Below are positions 367 to 26,896 of a stretch of 39,762 bases of DNA, piece after piece; the stretch's first letter is position 1; the number at the start of each line of letters is the position of its first letter. The stretch is from an uncultured Verrucomicrobiales bacterium. GTDB taxonomy: Bacteria > Verrucomicrobiota > Verrucomicrobiia > Verrucomicrobiales > Akkermansiaceae. Location of the stretch: NCBI GenBank assembly GCA_937969125.1, contig CALBVA010000014.1:1-39762 (forward strand). Direction: 5' to 3'. The position numbers and the translations under genes were made by a program. Under the pieces are notes generated by a model. That model did no database searches. It had not been told where the DNA came from and saw nothing but the letters and a program-made list of their open reading frames with translations.

Positions 367-417
367 TCGGCAGCAGGCTGTTAGTTTCCTTTGATGGGGA
401 CCGTAATCCATTTCCTC

Positions 418-3219
418 ATGAAGAAACCCGCGTTCCTCGTCGCCATTTTCACCCTGCTGGCCGTCATTGCTGTGCCGCTCCTTGGTCAACTTTCAAAACA
501 CGGCGCGAAACGTGGTAAAGCACCCAGTGGGTGGACCAAGTTCGAGTGGCCGGAGAAAAAGGCCATCCTTTTCGGCCACTATGCGCCGACACAAGAGGAG
601 CTGGCCCTCATTGATCAGGCTGTGCCAAAGGCCCTGACCGCCAAGCCTGCAAAAAAGCGGCGGATCCTCCTTTTCTATAAATGCGCTTACCCGCACGCCT
701 CCATCGCCACTGGTGTGGCCGCCTTTCAGAAAATGGCGAAGACCGGGGCCTATGAGGTCGATATCAGCGATGACTCTGCTCACTTCAGCAAGGAGAACCT
801 CGAGAAGTATGATGCCGTTCTCCTCAATAACACCGTCGCTTTTGAGACCTTTCTCAATGACGGACAGCGCGCGAATCTTCTGGAATTCGTGAAGGGTGGA
901 AAGGGTCTCATTGGTATTCACGCAGCAGCCGATGCCTGTAAAGGCTGGAAGCCCGGTGCCGAGATGATCGGTGGGGTTTTCCGATGCCACCCATGGACTT
1001 CGCGCGGCGAGTGGGCTGCCCAGTTGGAATCCCCCCTTCATCCGCTGAACAACGCTTGGGAGAACAAGGCTCCTTATCTGCGTGACGAAATTTATTATTA
1101 CCGGAAGGGCTCCTTTTCCCGTGATCGCTCCCGCGTCCTTCTTAGTCTGGACATGGATAATCAGCGGAACTTCGTCGGTGATGGAATTGCCAAAAATCAG
1201 AAGGAGTTTGTGAATAAGGGCGACGATAATCCAGTTTCTTGGATTCATGAATTCGGGAAAGGTCGCGTCTTTTACTCCAATCTCGGACACAATAATTTCA
1301 CCTTCTGGAATCCCACCGTGCTTCAGCATTTCCTTGATGGTATCCAGTATGCTCTTGGTGATCTCCCAGCCGATGCTACCCCATCGGCAAAGATCGCCGA
1401 CCTGCATGTTAAGAAAGTGGACGCTAAGAAAATCATCTTCCTTGCCGGAAGGCCATCCCATCGTTCCGGTGACCATGAATTCCGTGCCGGATCGATCCTT
1501 CTCGCCAACCGGTTGAATACCCAGACTCAGCTTCCGGTGAATGCTCAGGTCATCTCCGGCTGGCCTAAGGATGACAGGATACTGGATGGCGCCGCAGCCA
1601 TCGTCATTTATTGTGATGCCGACTCCGTCCATCGGAAGCATTACGAGCGACTCATGGAGCTCTCCGAAGCCGGGACCGGCCTCTTTTTCATGCACTACGG
1701 CGTGCACCCGAATAAGATCGAGGATGGCCAAAAGTATTATATGCCCACCGTTGGTGGATTCATGGAGACCGGCTACTCGGTGAATCCCCACTGGGCTGCG
1801 GAACTTCACGTAACCTCCGACCACCCGGTGAGACGCGGTTGTGAAAAACCCATTAAGGTTCTCGATGAATGGTATTATTCACTGCGCTATGACGAGAAAT
1901 CCTTCCCGCTCGTCGAAGCAATCCCCACCAAAGAAAATATGGTGGAGGGCTCGAATCTCTGGAACAAAAATGCCACAGATAACTACGGCAAGAAGGTCCG
2001 CCTGATGTGGGGCTTTGAAAAACCCGATGGCACCCGCGGCGGCGGTTTCACTGGGGGGCATTATCACCGGAACTGGGCTATCGAAGGATTCCGGAAGGTG
2101 GTCCTCAATGCTATTGTCTGGACCGCTGGACTGGAAGTCCCCGAGGGCGGCGTGAAGTCGAAGAACCCGGATGAGGAGGAGATCAATGCCAACCTCGACA
2201 AGAAAAAGACCATGGCTCGCATTTCCCTCCCGCTGAAGTCAGCGATGGAATACCGAGCGGATATCCTCCGTGGCCGCGCTGAACGCCGGAAAGCCGCCGA
2301 AGCGGAAAGGAAAAAGAAGAAGGCAGCGGCTGAAAAAAAGAGGACTGAAACAAAGCCTGCCAGATCGGAAATGAAGGAAAAGGAGCCTGTCACGAAGGCT
2401 CCTTCCCGGGAAAACAATCAATGGCGTGATCTCCTGGATCCGTCCCTCAGTCAATGGGACGTCTGGATGGGAGTTCCGCATAAGACCGTCAAGCTTCCCG
2501 AGAGCTCGGACTTTGAGGTCGATCCCGAAAGCGATGGCATGCGCGGAAAACCGCTCGGGCTGAACAATGATCCCTTAAAGGTCTTCTCCGCAGCTGAGGA
2601 AAACGGCGAAGTCATCCTTAAGATCTCCGGCCAAATCTATGGCGGAATTACCACGAAGGAGGAATTTAAAAACTACCACCTGACCCTGCAATACCGCTGG
2701 GGTGATAAAAAATGGGAGCCACGTCTCAAGCGGAAGCGCGACTCCGGCCTCCTCCTCCACTGCGTCGGCAAACACGGGGCTTTTTGGAATGTCTGGAAGC
2801 GTTGCCTTGAATGCCAGATCCAGGAAGGGGACACCGGTGATTTCTATCCTCTTGCTGGGACCATTGCCGACATTCCGGCGAGTCTTCCGGAAGGTAAGAA
2901 GAAGCCAGTTTATACTCCCGGAGCCGAACTCTTCGAAGCCAGCAGCCCAGTGACCCATGGACCGTCCGAGGAAAAGCCGAATGGCGAGTGGAACACCGTC
3001 GAAATCTACACTGTGGGTGACAAGATGATTCACGTTGTCAATGGCACCCTCAATATGGTTCTCCTGAATACCCGCCAAAAGACCCCGCATGGCCACGCCC
3101 CCCTCACTAAAGGCCAAATCCAGATCCAGTCCGAAGCCGCAGAGATCGATTACCGGAGAATAAAGATTCGCAATATCACTGAATTCCCCGAGCAGTTCAG
3201 TAAGGCGGTGGAGGAATGA
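418..3219 (+). CDS. Secreted multidomain protein: ThuA-like domain + second ThuA/GATase-like module + K/E/A-rich linker + DUF1080 (3-keto-disaccharide hydrolase-like) domain
   Basis: The track ORF 391..3219 starts at TTG. The ATG at 418 gives a classic signal peptide, MKKPAFLVAIFTLLAVIAVPLLG. ThuA-like motifs are present (GLIGIHAAAD, VSWIHEFGKGRVFYSNLGH). A second related module begins KKIIFLAGRPSHRSGDHEF. The charged linker is RAERRKAAEAERKKKKAAAEKK. The C-terminal DUF1080-like region has NGEWNTVEIY and GQIQIQSEAAEIDYRRIKIRNI. Confidence 0.85.
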   Translation: MKKPAFLVAIFTLLAVIAVPLLGQLSKHGAKRGKAPSGWTKFEWPEKKAILFGHYAPTQEELALIDQAVPKALTAKPAKKRRILLFYKCAYPHASIATGVAAFQKMAKTGAYEVDISDDSAHFSKENLEKYDAVLLNNTVAFETFLNDGQRANLLEFVKGGKGLIGIHAAADACKGWKPGAEMIGGVFRCHPWTSRGEWAAQLESPLHPLNNAWENKAPYLRDEIYYYRKGSFSRDRSRVLLSLDMDNQRNFVGDGIAKNQKEFVNKGDDNPVSWIHEFGKGRVFYSNLGHNNFTFWNPTVLQHFLDGIQYALGDLPADATPSAKIADLHVKKVDAKKIIFLAGRPSHRSGDHEFRAGSILLANRLNTQTQLPVNAQVISGWPKDDRILDGAAAIVIYCDADSVHRKHYERLMELSEAGTGLFFMHYGVHPNKIEDGQKYYMPTVGGFMETGYSVNPHWAAELHVTSDHPVRRGCEKPIKVLDEWYYSLRYDEKSFPLVEAIPTKENMVEGSNLWNKNATDNYGKKVRLMWGFEKPDGTRGGGFTGGHYHRNWAIEGFRKVVLNAIVWTAGLEVPEGGVKSKNPDEEEINANLDKKKTMARISLPLKSAMEYRADILRGRAERRKAAEAERKKKKAAAEKKRTETKPARSEMKEKEPVTKAPSRENNQWRDLLDPSLSQWDVWMGVPHKTVKLPESSDFEVDPESDGMRGKPLGLNNDPLKVFSAAEENGEVILKISGQIYGGITTKEEFKNYHLTLQYRWGDKKWEPRLKRKRDSGLLLHCVGKHGAFWNVWKRCLECQIQEGDTGDFYPLAGTIADIPASLPEGKKKPVYTPGAELFEASSPVTHGPSEEKPNGEWNTVEIYTVGDKMIHVVNGTLNMVLLNTRQKTPHGHAPLTKGQIQIQSEAAEIDYRRIKIRNITEFPEQFSKAVEE

Positions 3220-3246
3220 GAGGTGATTAGATGAGAGGTAGAAGAT

Positions 3247-3281
3247 GATCCCGGCGGGATCAAAGCTTGTAGCCCGGGATC
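3247..3281. terminator. GC-rich inverted repeats between convergent genes (possible bidirectional terminator)
   Basis: GATCCC-GGC-GGGATC (3247-3261) is followed by a further CCCGGGATC (3273-3281). It lies in the 74-bp gap between two convergent stop codons. There is no strong T-tract. Confidence 0.3.
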
Positions 3282-3293
3282 GAGCTGACAGCT

Positions 3294-4205
3294 TCAAATT
3301 TCCTCCGGCTCTTCCAACTCGGTGCCGTTTCTCCGAATGAGTCCCTGCGGACCGAGGAGCCAGACGAGGAGGAAAATGATTCCGGTCATTGTGGCCATCA
3401 TTCCGGAGCTGGTCGTTTCGGGGAGGCCGAAGATGACGGGGATTGCCTTTGTCGTGAGGTGTCCGAGGATTGCTGATCCTGCGGCGATGATCAGGCTGAG
3501 AAGGATGAGGATGGGAAGTCGGCGGGTGAGAAGGAAGGCCGTCGCAGGCGGGACGATGAGCATCGCGATGACAATGATGGACCCGACGGCCTCAAACGCA
3601 GCGACTGTGGTCACGGCCACCATGGTCATGAGGATATAGTGCATGAGGCGGGGATGAAATCCCTGGGTTTCGGCAAGGCCCGAGTCAAAGGAGGCTATGG
3701 TGAATTCTTTGTAGAAAAAGCCGATGACGGCGAGATTGAAAAGCAGGGTCGAGCCGATGACGATGGCGGCGCGTGGCATTTCATAGTTCTCGAAGACGGT
3801 GACCATATTTAGTGGAACGAGTTCCAGTGCTCCATAAAGCACGCAGCGAGCATCGAGGTCCACATTGCCTGCACCCTGCTCGATCAGGATGAGCCCGACG
3901 GCAAACAGGGTGGTGAAGACGATCCCCATAGAGGCTCCGCGATCGACCTTGCCGAATTTGCTGATCCATTGCGTAAAGAGTGCGGTCATGACGCCTGCGA
4001 CAGCCGCGCCAAAAAACATCCACCAACTGGTGCGAGCTCCAGAGATGAGGAATGCCACGGCCAGTCCGGGCAGGACGGCGTGGCTGATGGCATCGCCCAT
4101 CATACTCATGCGGCGGAGGAGTAGAAAGGTTCCCGGAAGCGCGCACGCCATCGCACATAACACTCCGACGGTGGTGATGTGGAAGTCGGTCGTGGTCCAG
4201 GTCAT
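3294..4205 (-). CDS. Metal ABC transporter permease, ABC-3 family (second permease, MntD/TroD/YtgD-like)
   Basis: 303-aa polytopic membrane protein with the typical ABC-3 start (GVLCAMACALPGTFLLLRRMSMMGDAISHAVLPG). It is the last gene of the tightly packed SBP-ATPase-permease cluster, 5 nt after the preceding gene. Confidence 0.9.
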   Translation of the reverse strand: MTWTTTDFHITTVGVLCAMACALPGTFLLLRRMSMMGDAISHAVLPGLAVAFLISGARTSWWMFFGAAVAGVMTALFTQWISKFGKVDRGASMGIVFTTLFAVGLILIEQGAGNVDLDARCVLYGALELVPLNMVTVFENYEMPRAAIVIGSTLLFNLAVIGFFYKEFTIASFDSGLAETQGFHPRLMHYILMTMVAVTTVAAFEAVGSIIVIAMLIVPPATAFLLTRRLPILILLSLIIAAGSAILGHLTTKAIPVIFGLPETTSSGMMATMTGIIFLLVWLLGPQGLIRRNGTELEEPEEI

Positions 4206-4210
4206 GGTTC

Positions 4211-5146
4211 TTAGAATCGTTTCGTGAAGCCGGTGAAGAAGCCAAAGTCTTCCGAGTCGTTGTTCAAGCCGCCTTGTAATCCGAAGTCGAGAATGAGGTG
4301 CTGATTGACCTGGTAATTCATCCCACCGGCAAGATAAGCCTCATAGGCATCTTCGCCCGCGATACCGATGTATTCCAGGTATGCTCCGGTGCGCTCGGTG
4401 AGACTGAATCCGAGGACGGCGGTGTGGAGGAATTCGAAATCGTGATTTTTCCCCTCAGCGACGTAGTCAAACTCCGCCATGAGCCCGAGGCCCACGGTTT
4501 CGCTGAGCTCGATTGAGAAGGGGATGATCAGGCCGCCTTCCCATTCGTCATTGCTCAATTCGGTCCCGGTCGGAATTTTCACGAAAGGCATCAGGGCGAG
4601 AGCGGTGTCTCCGCCATCATTACCCCAGAGATTCCACTTGAGACGCAGCGTAACATCTCCAAAGCCTTCGCCCGGCTCTTCACCTTCGGAGTAGAGATCG
4701 ACCACGGTTTGAAAGTCGATATTTTGGGTGAGGCCTGTTTTGAAATTCAACTGCCCGAATGTGTAGGTGTCCGTGCCGCCATCACGACGCCAGTCGAATA
4801 ATGAAGCTTCGATGGCGAAGCGTCCGGCATCCACGGTGATGGGGGACTCGGTAGCGTCTGGTCGATCTGGCGAGAGATCACGGAGGATTGAATCCGGGGT
4901 GGGATTGAAGAGGTGGTAATGGCTCTTTGACTCAATTTCTTTAGGAGGAAGTCTGGAGTTTGGAACCTTGGTTTGAGCAAAAGGTTCGAGGGCGTTCTCT
5001 TTTGTAAGGGGTGAAGGACTGGCTAGAATGGCGTCGATGGCTTGCTCTTTCAGCGACAGCAAGGTGGAGGTGGCCTCATCAGAGGTTTTGATGTTGGTTC
5101 CAAAAGCTCCGCATGGAAGCAAAGATAAGACGACTAGTTTCTTCAT
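4211..5146 (-). CDS. Outer-membrane beta-barrel protein, transporter / 'MetA-pathway of phenol degradation'-like family
   Basis: It has a signal peptide (MKKLVVLSLLPCGAFG). It shows the family-typical SPDRPDATESPITVDAGRFAIE and LRLKWNLWGNDGGDTALALMPFVKIPTG, alternating beta-strand pattern, and a C-terminal aromatic residue (TKRF). It overlaps the upstream permease gene by 4 nt. Confidence 0.75.
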   Translation of the reverse strand: MKKLVVLSLLPCGAFGTNIKTSDEATSTLLSLKEQAIDAILASPSPLTKENALEPFAQTKVPNSRLPPKEIESKSHYHLFNPTPDSILRDLSPDRPDATESPITVDAGRFAIEASLFDWRRDGGTDTYTFGQLNFKTGLTQNIDFQTVVDLYSEGEEPGEGFGDVTLRLKWNLWGNDGGDTALALMPFVKIPTGTELSNDEWEGGLIIPFSIELSETVGLGLMAEFDYVAEGKNHDFEFLHTAVLGFSLTERTGAYLEYIGIAGEDAYEAYLAGGMNYQVNQHLILDFGLQGGLNNDSEDFGFFTGFTKRF

Positions 5147-6492
5147 GTCGTAATAACGTGTGGTGATTCGATCACCGGCTTTTCTAGCTCAAGCGCTTTC
5201 TCCAGCTCGCGCACAATCTCTGGTTCCAACAAGTGCTCCACCATGTCAGCATCGCGGTCGACGTGGGAGGGGGCGATGTCGGCGTGAGTGATAAGATACA
5301 TTTCCCAGAGGCGGTGATTTCGCGTGATGCGGGAGGCCTCTCCAAAGCCGGACTCCGAGAGGCAGATCTCGCCGGTGGGTCGGCGGACAATGTGGTCCTC
5401 GGCGTGGGCTTGGCGGATGAGTTTTGAAAGCTCACCCTTGCTCCAGTATCGATGCTTCCGCAAGGCCTCCAGCGGGATGGGGATGTTCTTGAGAATCTCC
5501 ACGCCTTGGGTGTCTTCCAGAATTTCGTAGGTGGAACGCAGGATGTGCTGGCGGCCCACTTTTTTCTGGAGCTTCAGGTGCCTGAGGTAGCGCGGTAGAA
5601 CTCCCCGCGCGGTTCCGAAGATCATACTGAAGAGGAAAATGGTGGCCGCGGCGATCACGATGATAGCACCTGCGGGGAGGCCGGGGAGGAGGGCCGAGGC
5701 CGTGGCGCCGAGCCATCCGGAGATCGCACCAATGAGCGCGGCCAGGACTAGTATATGGGTGAGCTTGTTCGTCCAAAATCGCGCCGCCGTCGCCGGGGTG
5801 ATGAGGAAGGCGATGATGAGAATGAGTCCCACTGATTGCAGCCCCACCACTGTGACGGCGGTGACGAGCGCCATGAGGATGATGTCCAGCCAGAGGGTAG
5901 GCCATCCCTCGGTGGAGGCGAAATTGGAATCAAAACAGAGCAGGGTGAGCTCCTTTAGCAGGGCGAGGGTGGCGATGGTCGTCGCGATGAGGGTGCCGGT
6001 GATGAGCCAGAAATCCAGGAGCACCATAGAGGCGGTCTTGCCATAGATGAATGACTCCAGCCCAGCCGAACTCTGCCCGGGAATTTGTTGCACCATGCGG
6101 AGGATCGCAATGCCCAGGCCAAAGAAAACTGAGAGCACGATGCCCATCGCGGCATCGTCCTTCAGCCGGGTGGTCCGGCGAATCGCGAGCACCAGGAGCA
6201 CGCCAAGCAGCCCGGTGATGGTGGCTCCAAGAAGCAGGCCGGGGAGGAATTTTCCGGTGATGCCCATTGCCGTCATGATGGCGAAGGCGATCCCGATTCC
6301 CGGCAGAGTGGCGTGCGAGAGAGCATCGCCGAGGAGCGATTGCTTCCGCAGCAGGAGGAAGCTCCCCACCAATCCCGCCGTGGCACCTAGAAAAGTCACG
6401 CCTCCGACGACGAGGCGCGTATTGTAACCCTTCAGGAAGAGGGTTTCGGTGAGAGCTGAGCCCAGCTCCGCGATGACACTAACGTCCCACAT
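5143..6492 (-). CDS. ABC-3 family metal permease fused to a C-terminal DtxR/MntR-family metalloregulator domain (YtgCR-like)
   Basis: Residues ~1-300 form a polytopic ABC-3 permease (LLLRKQSLLGDALSHATLPG). Residues ~305-449 resemble DtxR: GRQHILRSTYEILED (wHTH start), RNHRLWEMYL (DtxR KHRLAERLL) and DADMVEHLLEPEIVRELEKAL (DtxR EACRWEHVMSDEVERRL). It is a single uninterrupted 449-codon ORF. Confidence 0.85.
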   Translation of the reverse strand: MWDVSVIAELGSALTETLFLKGYNTRLVVGGVTFLGATAGLVGSFLLLRKQSLLGDALSHATLPGIGIAFAIMTAMGITGKFLPGLLLGATITGLLGVLLVLAIRRTTRLKDDAAMGIVLSVFFGLGIAILRMVQQIPGQSSAGLESFIYGKTASMVLLDFWLITGTLIATTIATLALLKELTLLCFDSNFASTEGWPTLWLDIILMALVTAVTVVGLQSVGLILIIAFLITPATAARFWTNKLTHILVLAALIGAISGWLGATASALLPGLPAGAIIVIAAATIFLFSMIFGTARGVLPRYLRHLKLQKKVGRQHILRSTYEILEDTQGVEILKNIPIPLEALRKHRYWSKGELSKLIRQAHAEDHIVRRPTGEICLSESGFGEASRITRNHRLWEMYLITHADIAPSHVDRDADMVEHLLEPEIVRELEKALELEKPVIESPHVITT

Positions 6493-7255
6493 TTTTTAAG
6501 GCCTCGGCGACATCGTCGAGGAGGTTGAGCTTGCCTCCATAGGTTTTCTGGAGGTTCTCGCGGGTGAAGGTTTCAGGCGTCGGGCCGCTCGCTACGATGC
6601 GCATGTTCAGCAGGATGAGGTGATCGAAGTAGCGTGAAACTGTGGCGAGATCGTGATGCACGCATAAGACTGTTTTTCCGCGAGCGTTGAGGTTTTGCAG
6701 CAATTCAATGATGGCCTGCTCCGTCGCGGCATCGACGGCAGCGAAGGGCTCATCCATGAAATAAATCTCGGCATCCTGCACCAGGGCGCGGGCGAGGAAA
6801 ACGCGCTGCTGCTGCCCGCCGGAAAGCTGGGAAATCTGCCGGTCCGCGAGGTGGCCAATGCCGACCTGCTCCAGTGCTTCGTGGGCCTGTTGTTTTTGCT
6901 GACGGCCCACGCGCTTGAACCAACCGAGCTTCCGGTAGGTCCCCATCGTGACGACATCCAGTGCACTCACCGGGAAGTCCCAATCGACACTTTCCCGCTG
7001 CGGGACGTAGGCAATGAGGTCTCGTTGTTCCTCATAAGGTTTGCCGTAGATGAGGACCTCGCCCGAGGTCTTCGGAATGAGGTCCAGACAGGCCTTCAGC
7101 AGGGTGGACTTACCGGCGCCGTTCGGCCCCACGATCCCCGCTAGCTTTCCTTCGGGAACATTGAGATCCAGATCCCAGAGTACCGGCTTGCGATGATAAG
7201 CCACCGTCAGGTCATGAACGGCGAGAGGATATTCGGGTGGATGTTCGGGGCGCAT
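6479..7255 (-). CDS. Metal ABC transporter ATP-binding protein (MntB/TroB/ZnuC-like)
   Basis: Walker A GPNGAGKST, ABC signature LSGGQQQR and Walker B IYFMDEPF are present. It overlaps the downstream permease gene by 14 nt. Confidence 0.93.
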   Translation of the reverse strand: MRPEHPPEYPLAVHDLTVAYHRKPVLWDLDLNVPEGKLAGIVGPNGAGKSTLLKACLDLIPKTSGEVLIYGKPYEEQRDLIAYVPQRESVDWDFPVSALDVVTMGTYRKLGWFKRVGRQQKQQAHEALEQVGIGHLADRQISQLSGGQQQRVFLARALVQDAEIYFMDEPFAAVDAATEQAIIELLQNLNARGKTVLCVHHDLATVSRYFDHLILLNMRIVASGPTPETFTRENLQKTYGGKLNLLDDVAEALKNVGR

Positions 7256-7260
7256 CGAGC

Positions 7261-8202
7261 TTAGCGGGAGAGCTTTTTGTTCAGGCCTTCCTTGGACACC
7301 GAGCCGCCAAGTGCAAGTGTGATGGTGGTGATATTGTGATCCATCATCCCGATGTAGGTGCCCTCGTAAGTGCCCGCCGGGCCCATGGCATCAGAGAAAA
7401 GCTTACCGCCGATCTTCACCTCATGTCCCTGTGCTTTCGCTCCTTCAATGAGGGCCCGCACCGTTTTATCGGAGACCGAAGTTTCCACAAAGACGGCCGG
7501 GATTTTCTTTTCCACCAGGAAATTGACCAGTTCGCTGATCCTCGCGTTTCCCGCTTCGGACTCGGTCGAGATCCCCTGAATTCCCATTACCTTCAGGCCG
7601 TAGGCGCGGCCGAGGTAGGAGAAGGCATCGTGTGCGGTTACCAGCACGCGCCGCTCCGGTGGGATGGTGGAGAGTGCCATCTGGGCGTAGGTCTGTAGGT
7701 CGGTGAGCTCTTTTCGGTAATTTTCGAAGCGCTTCGAATAGTGGTCAGCATTGTCAGGATCGAACTCCGCGAGCTTCTTCTGAATGCCTTCCGCGACCCG
7801 ACTCCAGATTCCGACATCCATCCAGAGGTGGGGATCGGCATGCTCTTCGCCTCCAATGAGCTCCACGTCCTCCAAACCTTCCGCGACCGCCATCGTCGGG
7901 TGGCCGGCTTCGCGTCGGTTGTCGAGCACCGTGCCCATTTTACCTTCCAGTAGGAGGCCGTTATAAAGCACGAGCCGGGAGGACTTGATCTTCTCAGTAT
8001 CACCGGCGGTGACATTGTAGGAGTGGGGATCGGTGCCTTCCTTAATGAGGGCAATGACGTCCTGTTTGTCTCCAGCGATTTCCTGAGTGACATCGGCGAT
8101 CATTCCCACTGTCGCAATAATTGGCCCGTCCGTGGCCTGTTCTTTTTTCTTGGTGCAGGCCGTGATTGAAAGAGCAGCAACGAGGAGGAGGAGAGTCTTC
8201 AT
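7261..8202 (-). CDS. Periplasmic metal-binding lipoprotein, cluster A-I SBP (PsaA/MntC/TroA-like)
   Basis: Lipobox-like signal (LLVAALSITAC). The putative His/His/Glu/Asp ligand set lies in DPHSY, DPHLW, STESE and FSDAMG, a pattern usually associated with Mn/Fe rather than Zn. It is the first gene of the operon. Confidence 0.93.
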   Translation of the reverse strand: MKTLLLLVAALSITACTKKKEQATDGPIIATVGMIADVTQEIAGDKQDVIALIKEGTDPHSYNVTAGDTEKIKSSRLVLYNGLLLEGKMGTVLDNRREAGHPTMAVAEGLEDVELIGGEEHADPHLWMDVGIWSRVAEGIQKKLAEFDPDNADHYSKRFENYRKELTDLQTYAQMALSTIPPERRVLVTAHDAFSYLGRAYGLKVMGIQGISTESEAGNARISELVNFLVEKKIPAVFVETSVSDKTVRALIEGAKAQGHEVKIGGKLFSDAMGPAGTYEGTYIGMMDHNITTITLALGGSVSKEGLNKKLSR

Positions 8203-8233
8203 GGGTCTTTTTTAGGTGGTGAACTTTGAGTTG

Positions 8234-8251
8234 TCAAAATTGAAATTTTGA
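8234..8251. promoter_or_regulatory. Candidate metalloregulator operator: perfect 8-2-8 palindrome TCAAAATT-GA-AATTTTGA
   Basis: A perfect inverted repeat read directly from the sequence. It lies 32-49 nt upstream of the SBP start codon (8202), in an AT-rich stretch where the operon promoter must be. Confidence 0.45.
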
Positions 8252-8456: not shown

Positions 8457-8485
8457 CAAAAAAAGAGCACCCGGGAAGGGTGCTC
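8457..8485 (-). terminator. Rho-independent terminator of thiC
   Basis: A 9-bp perfect stem, AGAGCACCC (8463-8471) / GGGTGCTCT (8477-8485), has a 5-nt loop. On the minus strand it is followed by a T-run (complement of A 8458-8463). It sits 28 nt after the thiC stop. Confidence 0.7.
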
Positions 8486-8512
8486 TTTAAAAGAACTGCT
8501 GCTGTCAGGGAC

Positions 8513-10775
<2,263 letters not shown>

Positions 10776-10892
10776 AGCGGAACGGTGGGGGGCGATGGCA
10801 GATTTGTCAAATGAGGAAAGGGTCAGGCTGATTCAGCCATCATCATATCCATCCTTGAGCTTGTCGGTTCTCGCCGCCAATCTTCGCCGCAG

Positions 10893-26091: not shown

Positions 26092-26241
26092 TGTAGTTTG
26101 GGATTTGGTTGGTGTTGATTGGCGGAGCGTGAAATTCGCTTAACCAATCAGCACTCTATGGAGGGTGATTTAATACGTCAAGATCCCCCTTGAATTGAAA
26201 TGACCTTGCAGGCTTATTTTTAAATTTGAGCTGGACTTGAT

Positions 26242-26270
26242 TGATCTAATGAATAGTGTTCATTGAATCA
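26242..26270. promoter_or_regulatory. Candidate LexA operator: imperfect 29-bp palindrome with core AATGAA-N5-TTCATT and a TGTTC half-site
   Basis: tgatctAATGAAtagtgTTCATTgaatca. The arms pair at 10 of 12 positions around 26256, and it ends 9 nt before the lexA ATG. TGTTC is at 26257-26261, followed 4 nt later by AATCA. Confidence 0.4.
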
Positions 26271-26278
26271 CTTTCACC

Positions 26279-26896
26279 ATGGCCGAAAAACTTACAAAGC
26301 GTCAGCAGGAGCTCCTCGATTTTCTTAAGTATTCTCAAAACAAGAACGGCCTCATGCCGTCCACTCGTGAAATTCAGGCCCATTTCGGTTTTGCCAGCCA
26401 GACCGCTGCCATGAGTCATCTTCGCGCTTTGGAGAAGAAGGGCGTCATTGTTCGCCTCGCCGGTAAGGCCCGTGCTGTCGTATTTCCTGCCGATCTTGAG
26501 CGGGAAGAAGTCATGGATATCCCCGTTTACGGCAGCATTGCCGCAGGTATGGCGGAAGTGGTGGATGAAGAAAAGGTGGGCTGTGTTTCCATCGATATTG
26601 CCTCACTGGGAATTCCTAGGAATGCTCGCACCTTCGGCCTCCAAGTCCGTGGGGAATCGATGATCGATGCCCACATCTGTGATGGAGACACTGTCATCAT
26701 GGAATTCCGTGAGCCTCGTCACCTCGATATCGTTGCCGCTTTGATTGATGACGAGACCACTCTGAAAAGATTCATCATGGAGAAGGGGCGTCCCTATCTT
26801 CGCGCCGAAAATGAGAACTTCCCCGATCTCATTCCTGCCCGCGAACTCGTCGTCCAGGGCGTAATGGTCGGTCTGCTCCGTACGGGCCGCATGTAA
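26279..26896 (+). CDS. lexA: SOS repressor LexA
   Basis: N-terminal wHTH (LTKRQQELLDFL...REIQAHFGFASQTAAMSHLRALEKKG), Ala-Gly cleavage site (GSIAAGMA), and catalytic Ser (VRGESMIDA) and Lys (ETTLKRF). Confidence 0.95.
   Translation: MAEKLTKRQQELLDFLKYSQNKNGLMPSTREIQAHFGFASQTAAMSHLRALEKKGVIVRLAGKARAVVFPADLEREEVMDIPVYGSIAAGMAEVVDEEKVGCVSIDIASLGIPRNARTFGLQVRGESMIDAHICDGDTVIMEFREPRHLDIVAALIDDETTLKRFIMEKGRPYLRAENENFPDLIPARELVVQGVMVGLLRTGRM

Follow-up and report, generated by a model that had tools for sequence, protein, structure and literature searches.

An ABC-3 permease-repressor fusion and its predicted TroR-type operator in a metal-uptake operon of Verrucomicrobiota

We describe a permease-repressor fusion gene and its predicted operator in a 39.8-kb stretch of DNA from an uncultured Verrucomicrobiales bacterium (39,762 nucleotides of contig CALBVA010000014.1, assembly GCA_937969125.1; hereafter the window). 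The gene belongs to a Tro/Ytg-like operon for a divalent-metal importer of the ATP-binding cassette (ABC) type, in which an ABC-3 permease continues in frame into a DtxR/TroR-type domain. The fusion is real. We consider it likely that this tail of the first permease is a metal-dependent autorepressor of the importer operon, with the active dimer most probably forming after proteolytic release.

Permease-repressor fusions have been studied only in Chlamydia, an organism that is hard to manipulate. The first-pass annotation of the window presented the fusion as one found outside Chlamydiae. It is indeed present in Verrucomicrobiota, but the implied novelty was overstated, since a review (PMC5599777) credits Thompson et al. 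(2012) with the identification of orthologous permease-repressor fusions in 11 bacterial phyla; with such fusions already on record, the current picture is unchanged. What is added here is a TroR-type three-half-site operator conserved across Verrucomicrobiota, a set of metal ligands made up entirely of nitrogen and oxygen (N/O) donors, an S-P-H motif, and a recurrent outer-membrane partner gene. The same architecture is standard in free-living Verrucomicrobiota, together with a defined, conserved operator over the promoter, and these bacteria offer tractable systems and a concrete DNA target for asking if the repressor leaves the membrane and, if so, in what way. Coraliomargarita algicola, Roseibacillus ishigakijimensis, Haloferula helveola and Pirellulimonas nuda are culturable hosts that carry the fusion.

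The fusion gene and its two halves

The fusion gene occupies positions 5143-6492 of the minus strand, a strand that the first-pass annotation had not given. As that annotation had claimed, the list of open reading frames (ORFs) contains here a single uninterrupted frame, which is ATG-initiated and encodes 449 amino acids (aa). Pfam recognizes two domains in the protein, ABC-3 at aa 31-292 (E 1.9e-57) and Fe_dep_repr_C (PF02742) at aa 380-435 (E 6e-12; 45.8-49 bits, gathering score 27). This architecture was found in 120 of the 120 best database homologues, which are 58-84% identical to the protein, and the same unbroken fused gene lies in the same operon in all 80 related loci, these being the best 80 from a scan of one genome per species. 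Because both sets share the fused gene, the fusion is confirmed as real and not an artefact of assembly; the stop or frameshift that the first-pass annotation had thought resequencing might reveal splits none of them. Naturally split permease and regulator genes were considered and, for the copies checked, rejected. Short stand-alone matches are contig-end fragments, and split copies on two long contigs (L081, 2992-4471; L082, 3154-4468) were shown by tblastn to be a fused gene lying across frameshifts; the neighboring genes of both loci are also fragmented, which marks these as error-rich assemblies. An internal translation start at the conserved Met290 was likewise found to be unsupported, as no internal Shine-Dalgarno sequence precedes Met290 in the fusion gene and the residue lies inside the last transmembrane helix.

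The permease part (aa 1-295; 5608..6492, minus strand) has nine predicted transmembrane helices, and nine are also present in an AlphaFold2 model of the whole protein that was built from 48 homologues (mean predicted local distance difference test score, pLDDT, 84). Its closest structure in a Foldseek search was the Mn2+ importer PsaBC of Streptococcus pneumoniae (7kyp; template-modelling score, TM, 0.87; 32% identity), which together with the Pfam match bears out the earlier reading of the N-terminal ~300 aa as a polytopic ABC-3 permease. PsaC is a homodimer without a regulatory domain, whereas here two different permeases are encoded and one of them carries a repressor. A basic linker, RGVLPRYLRHL (aa 296-306; 5575..5607, minus strand), follows, and the model runs it without a break into repressor helix alpha-1 as one helix. 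In the whole-protein model, a long helix at residues 298-329 comes directly after the last transmembrane helix and spans both linker and alpha-1, and is itself followed by two short helices, a beta-hairpin wing and three more helices. Residue 1 of DtxR corresponds to about aa 307, because DtxR Met10 aligns to H316.

The remaining segment (aa 307-449; 5146..5574, minus strand) is a DtxR/TroR-type domain with a predicted winged helix-turn-helix (HTH), a dimerisation/metal-binding domain and a C-terminal S-P-H motif. By sequence alone, only half of a DtxR module is proven. Fold prediction was chosen because the HTH model PF01325 gave no match on the tail. Modelled alone with AlphaFold2, the C-terminal 155 aa (pLDDT 90) have helices at 4-35, 47-53 and 58-70, strands at 74-76 and 82-84, and then three helices. 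The top 50 Foldseek matches of this model in the PDB are all DtxR, IdeR, MntR, SloR, ScaR or DR2539, and the best of them superposes it on residues 1-118 of DNA-bound DtxR (1ddn_A; TM 0.82 over 120 columns). Because these top matches are all of the DtxR family, a winged HTH appears to be present, yet diverged past the Pfam model. The first-pass annotation had assigned the C-terminal ~145 aa to the DtxR type as a whole; the dimerisation/metal-binding domain stands by Pfam, and the winged HTH is recovered by predicted fold but not by PF01325.

A profile of 50 C-terminal domains searched against the PDB retrieved SloR (E 5e-12), MtsR, ScaR and DtxR (E 2e-9). In its alignment to DtxR, H393 corresponds to His79, E397 to Glu83, D412 to His98, D416 to Cys102, E419 to Glu105 and H420 to His106. 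These equivalences are identical to those previously read from the motifs RNHRLWEMYL (His79 and Glu83) and DADMVEH (Glu105 and His106, with Asp in place of Cys102 and His98), both of which are found in the translated fusion ORF. A seventh ligand candidate, H316, lies on helix alpha-1 at the position of Met10 in DtxR and of Asp7 in SloR. At three ligand positions the residue thus differs from that of DtxR (His for Met, Asp for His and Asp for Cys), and the resulting set is all N/O, with Met and Cys absent from it. The seven positions (H316, H393, E397, D412, D416, E419 and H420) are invariant in 48 Verrucomicrobial full-length homologues, and the six that lie in the dimerisation domain are invariant or at least 90% conserved in a more diverse alignment. 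R348, W350, H367 and the wing residues are also invariant in the 48 homologues. An all-N/O ligand set is the pattern of Mn-responsive members of the family, unlike the Fe-responsive DtxR and IdeR, and Mn-responsive members typically have a carboxylate at the position equivalent to Cys102.

SloR, ScaR and MtsR, with MntR of Bacillus subtilis, are the best sequence matches among solved structures, and all share this carboxylate with the domain described here. They differ from it in being soluble, stand-alone proteins, of which SloR, ScaR and MtsR carry a C-terminal FeoA/SH3-like domain; the ligand motif is HEEAExLEH in the streptococcal regulators and DRDADxVEH here. The fusion has no SH3-like third domain but instead ends in a short tail with S-P-H (aa 443-445; 5146-5166, minus strand). 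S443 and H445 are invariant and P444 is at least 90% conserved in two alignments; a variable spacer precedes the motif, which is invariant or nearly so across the whole fused family. We speculate that S-P-H might complete an ancillary site in place of the ligands that the SH3-like domain supplies in DtxR. In this the domain resembles TroR of Treponema pallidum, which PMC2628430 describes as being without the C-terminal SH3-like domain, unlike TroR of T. denticola.

Operator and promoter

The predicted operator (8223..8251, minus strand) is built from three half-sites of 7 nt, spaced 11 bp apart, TCAAAAT-ttca-ATTTTGA-caac-TCAAAGT. The palindrome at 8234-8251 (TCAAAATT tc AATTTTGA), which had been proposed earlier as the binding target, corresponds to the left two-thirds of this element and, judging from its conservation, is a genuine part of it. 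The right-hand part is a TroR-type dyad at 8223-8240, ATTTTGAcaacTCAAAGT, with the same 7-4-7 layout and nearly the same sequence as ATTTTGAtataTCAAAAT of T. denticola and ACTTTGAtgcaTCAAAAT of T. pallidum, which are functionally tested TroR operators (PMC2628430). The Treponema operator is an 18-bp dyad of the type A(Y)TTTGA-N4-TCAAAAT, as here, to which the present operator adds a third, upstream half-site. The YtgR operator has also been reported as aligning with the TroR operator.

Conservation was counted over the 72 related loci with a usable upstream region. In 53 of these, the 400 nt upstream of the operon contain the core YTTGA-N4-TCAAR, and elsewhere in ~850 kb of flanks of the related loci it was found 0 times. 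The consensus of 54 sites (53 loci and the window) is TCAAatt-TTTt-ATcTTGA-ctAn-TCAAaaT, in which all three half-sites are kept.

A putative promoter (8209..8237, minus strand) comprises a -35-like TTGACA (8237-8232), which lies inside the middle half-site of the operator, a 17-nt spacer and a -10-like TAAAAA (8214-8209); an automatic sigma-70 scan gave no call for it. The ATG of the gene for the solute-binding protein (SBP) follows 6 nt past the -10-like hexamer, here and in many related loci, and the 54 aligned sites display the layout TTGACn / 16-17 nt / TAGAAT / 6 nt / ATG in many cases. With the hexamer ending 6 nt before the ATG, a Shine-Dalgarno sequence would not fit between them, and the operon may have a leaderless mRNA.

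Two further observations concern operator sequences. DtxR/IdeR-box-like palindromes (TTAGGTTAACCTAA, TTAGCnnnnGCTAA) lie upstream of the SBP gene in loci L026, L030, L034, L045, L055 and L066, and a recognition-helix variant, LLRTA, with Thr at the position of Q361, is present in five of these six DtxR-box-like loci and in 0 of the 54 TroR-type sequences. The variant may have arisen as helix and operator evolved together; the co-variation is not used as evidence because phylogeny confounds it and several of the upstream regions are unusable. Within the window, a search for further operator copies gave three matches where a mean of 1.4 was expected, which is at chance level. Two 1-mismatch core matches lie at 26168-26250 (plus strand), upstream of lexA (26279-26896).

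Possible modes of action of the fused domain

We propose that imported metal, as it accumulates, would fill two DtxR-type sites of the fused domain, one formed by H316/D416/E419/H420 and the other by H393/E397/D412, the latter perhaps completed by H445. The metal sensed is most likely Mn2+, which is favored because the ligand set is all N/O; Zn2+ or Fe2+ would also be possible. The metal-filled domain would dimerise and bind the three-half-site operator at 8223-8251. Because the operator shares sequence with the -35 element and the spacer of the putative promoter, binding would occlude the promoter and repress the operon in a negative autoregulatory manner. The analysis shows the domain architecture, the fold, the conserved ligand positions, the operon structure and an operator that is conserved and matches those of TroR; which metal is sensed, binding to DNA and cleavage are inferred. 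Before the dimer forms, the C-terminal fragment would most probably be freed by proteolysis. Release before action is favored because each heterodimeric transporter has one repressor-bearing permease, because the linker is only about 11 residues long and helical, and because of the chlamydial YtgCR precedent, the only known case of such release, in which the 49-kDa YtgC gives rise to YtgR of 28 kDa, a repressor of the ytg promoter (PMC5599777).

The likeness to YtgCR of Chlamydia trachomatis (CT069) is one of architecture and gene order. Both proteins join an ABC-3 permease to a C-terminal DtxR-like repressor, the ytgABCD operon has the order SBP, ATPase, permease::repressor and permease, as here, and the SBP of each system resembles TroA. 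Autorepression of its own promoter has been shown for YtgR, whereas here it is predicted. The present system differs in that its host is a free-living Verrucomicrobium, in having an extra outer-membrane barrel gene inside the operon, and in its all-N/O ligands (His at the Met10 position and Asp at the His98 and Cys102 positions). The iron dependence, cleavage and Trp-codon (WWW) attenuation that are described for YtgCR are not evident here. The regulator gene of Treponema, troR, stands on its own downstream of troD, whereas in the window the repressor forms part of the first permease.

Several observations weigh against autorepression by a released fragment. No protease or cleavage motif is identifiable for the fusion, and PF01325 stays unmatched when the C-terminal 157 aa are scanned alone with E<=10 allowed. 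Within the repressor domain, conservation is lowest in the recognition helix, and some distant members have Asn in place of H316. At 13 of the 72 loci there is no recognizable operator, and at another six a DtxR-box-like TTAGG/C...CTAA palindrome takes the place of the TroR-type dyad. A separate regulator encoded elsewhere in the genome, outside the 39.8-kb window, could also be the one that uses the operator.

Among the alternatives, it is rather unlikely, but conceivable, that the repressor works tethered, with two transporter complexes pairing via their metal-bound DtxR-type domains and holding the operator at the membrane. Such a mode would resemble that of ToxR/CadC-type regulators or of artificially anchored LacI. 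Every full-length relative is fused and the split copies that were checked are frameshifts, and so strict a retention of the fusion suggests that the covalent link itself is selected. Leaderless, co-translationally inserted products would also hold the locus near the membrane. Full-length YtgC repressed in Escherichia coli and the review allows a tethered mode, although a free fragment has been observed in Chlamydia (PMC5599777). Tethering is further disfavored by the presence of only one repressor-bearing permease per heterodimeric transporter, and by the ~11-residue linker, which as a rigid helix in the model would place the winged HTH beside the ATPase and against the membrane, a position ill suited to the wrapping of DNA by one dimer or two.

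A second alternative, which we regard as quite improbable, would have the C-terminal domain as a cytoplasmic sensor of metal, gating transport and not binding DNA, the operator then serving another regulator. The regulatory domains of MetNI and ModBC are precedents for such trans-inhibition. This would be consistent with a metal-binding/dimerisation half that is much more conserved than the recognition helix, with the failure of PF01325 to detect the HTH in the tail, and with the position of the domain in the AlphaFold2 model, where it would adjoin the ATPase. However, a complete winged HTH with its wing is predicted at high confidence and superposes on DNA-bound DtxR, residues R348, W350 and H367 and those of the wing are invariant, a TroR-type operator lies exactly where an autoregulator would act, and the chlamydial homologue binds DNA. 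An artefact in which separate genes for permease and regulator were merged into a single ORF by an overlooked stop or frameshift can be dismissed, as it is refuted by the independent fused loci and homologues given above, and the error that was seen is the opposite one, namely fused genes broken by frameshifts in error-prone contigs.

Beyond autorepression by a released fragment, there is some chance, which we would still rate as low, of a reading in which the domain acts at the transporter. Here it would sense exiting metal and either gate transport or hold the leaderless promoter at the membrane, with release as a regulated second step. In a related version, the fusion and the three-half-site operator would be ancestral to the Planctomycetes-Verrucomicrobia-Chlamydiae (PVC) superphylum, and YtgCR would be a vertically inherited relic and not a chlamydial invention. 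The culturable hosts would open the YtgCR protease and its cleavage signal to experiment.

Distribution of the fusion and genes of the operon

The first-pass annotation took the host to be a PVC bacterium, and both the homologues and the related loci place it in Verrucomicrobiota. The best database homologue is 84% identical, and the named ones belong to Akkermansiaceae, Verrucomicrobiaceae, Roseibacillus, Coraliomargarita and Opitutales. In the one-genome-per-species scan, at least 585 species representatives have a relative; the best 80 are labelled almost all as Verrucomicrobiota, with a few bins labelled Planctomycetaceae, Phycisphaeraceae, Chitinivibrionales and Rhizobiaceae. Judging from sequence comparison, the fusion is the norm in Verrucomicrobiota. 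A HMMER search with the C-terminal domain gave 948 clusters at 50% identity, 352 of them at E<=1e-10, and in the best 150 clusters the match always lies at the C-terminal end, with full-length proteins of 420-613 aa. Homologue searches returned Verrucomicrobiota, Planctomycetota, Bacteroidota and Oligoflexia, and PF01325 is listed for none of the homologues that the database searches returned. The same architecture occurs in Pirellulimonas nuda and other Planctomycetota, in Oligoflexia and in several Bacteroidota, and as fragments in Kiritimatiellae and Phycisphaerae. The phyletic survey that had been suggested earlier locates the fusion in Verrucomicrobiota, Planctomycetota, Bacteroidota, Oligoflexia and Kiritimatiellae; such fusions number in the thousands in public databases.

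The operon consists of five minus-strand genes that are tightly packed or overlapping, and no separate regulator gene was seen in it. Its order of SBP, ATPase, permease::repressor, an extra gene and second permease, as first annotated, is upheld by Pfam in the window, and the order SBP-ATPase-fusion-(outer-membrane protein)-permease recurs in 80 of the 80 related loci. The SBP (7261..8202, minus strand) is a TroA-type periplasmic metal-binding protein of cluster A-I with a lipoprotein-like signal peptide (Pfam ZnuA, E 3e-79). Its best solved homologue is TroA of T. pallidum (1toa, E 1.4e-74), to which it is closest, with the same His3Asp site: the DPH, DPH, AHD and SDA motifs that carry the His-His-His-Asp ligands of TroA are all four identical in the SBP. 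The ABC ATPase gene (6479..7255, minus strand; Pfam ABC_tran, E 1e-31) overlaps the fusion gene by 14 nt, and the best NCBIfam matches of its product are Mn/Fe ATPases, under the equivalog cut-offs. The second ABC-3 permease (3294..4205, minus strand; Pfam ABC-3, E 1.8e-44) is without a repressor domain and shares 31% identity with the fusion's permease part. It lies downstream of the fusion gene in all 80 loci and is presumed to be the heterodimer partner of the fusion permease.

Between the two permease genes is a gene of the outer-membrane beta-barrel family Phenol_MetA_deg (4211..5146, minus strand; Pfam PF13557, E 1.6e-17), the start of which overlaps the stop of the fusion gene (ATGA). 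Of the 80 related operons, 25 contain a Phenol_MetA_deg gene, and its place varies among four: ahead of the SBP gene, between the SBP and ATPase genes, between the two permease genes, or behind the second permease gene. This barrel may be the outer-membrane entry channel of the metal.

A 240-aa ORF at 2575-3297 (minus strand) lies at the end of the operon. It has no family match and lies antisense in a gene for a 942-aa ThuA and 3-keto-disaccharide hydrolase protein (391-3219, plus strand), which is convergent to the operon, and it is almost certainly a shadow ORF. On the other side, a terminator-like hairpin after thiC (8462..8488, minus strand), with an 11-bp stem followed by a T run, forms the upstream boundary of the metal-uptake unit. 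Riboswitch control of the metal operon was rejected, as it had no Rfam match, and no Rfam family reached its gathering score anywhere in the window. A sub-threshold, full-length match to the thiamine pyrophosphate (TPP) riboswitch is found at 10686-10776 (minus strand; 22 bits, gathering score 54, E 0.27). This match is upstream of thiC (8513-10600), in the right place and on the right strand, and is likely a divergent THI element.

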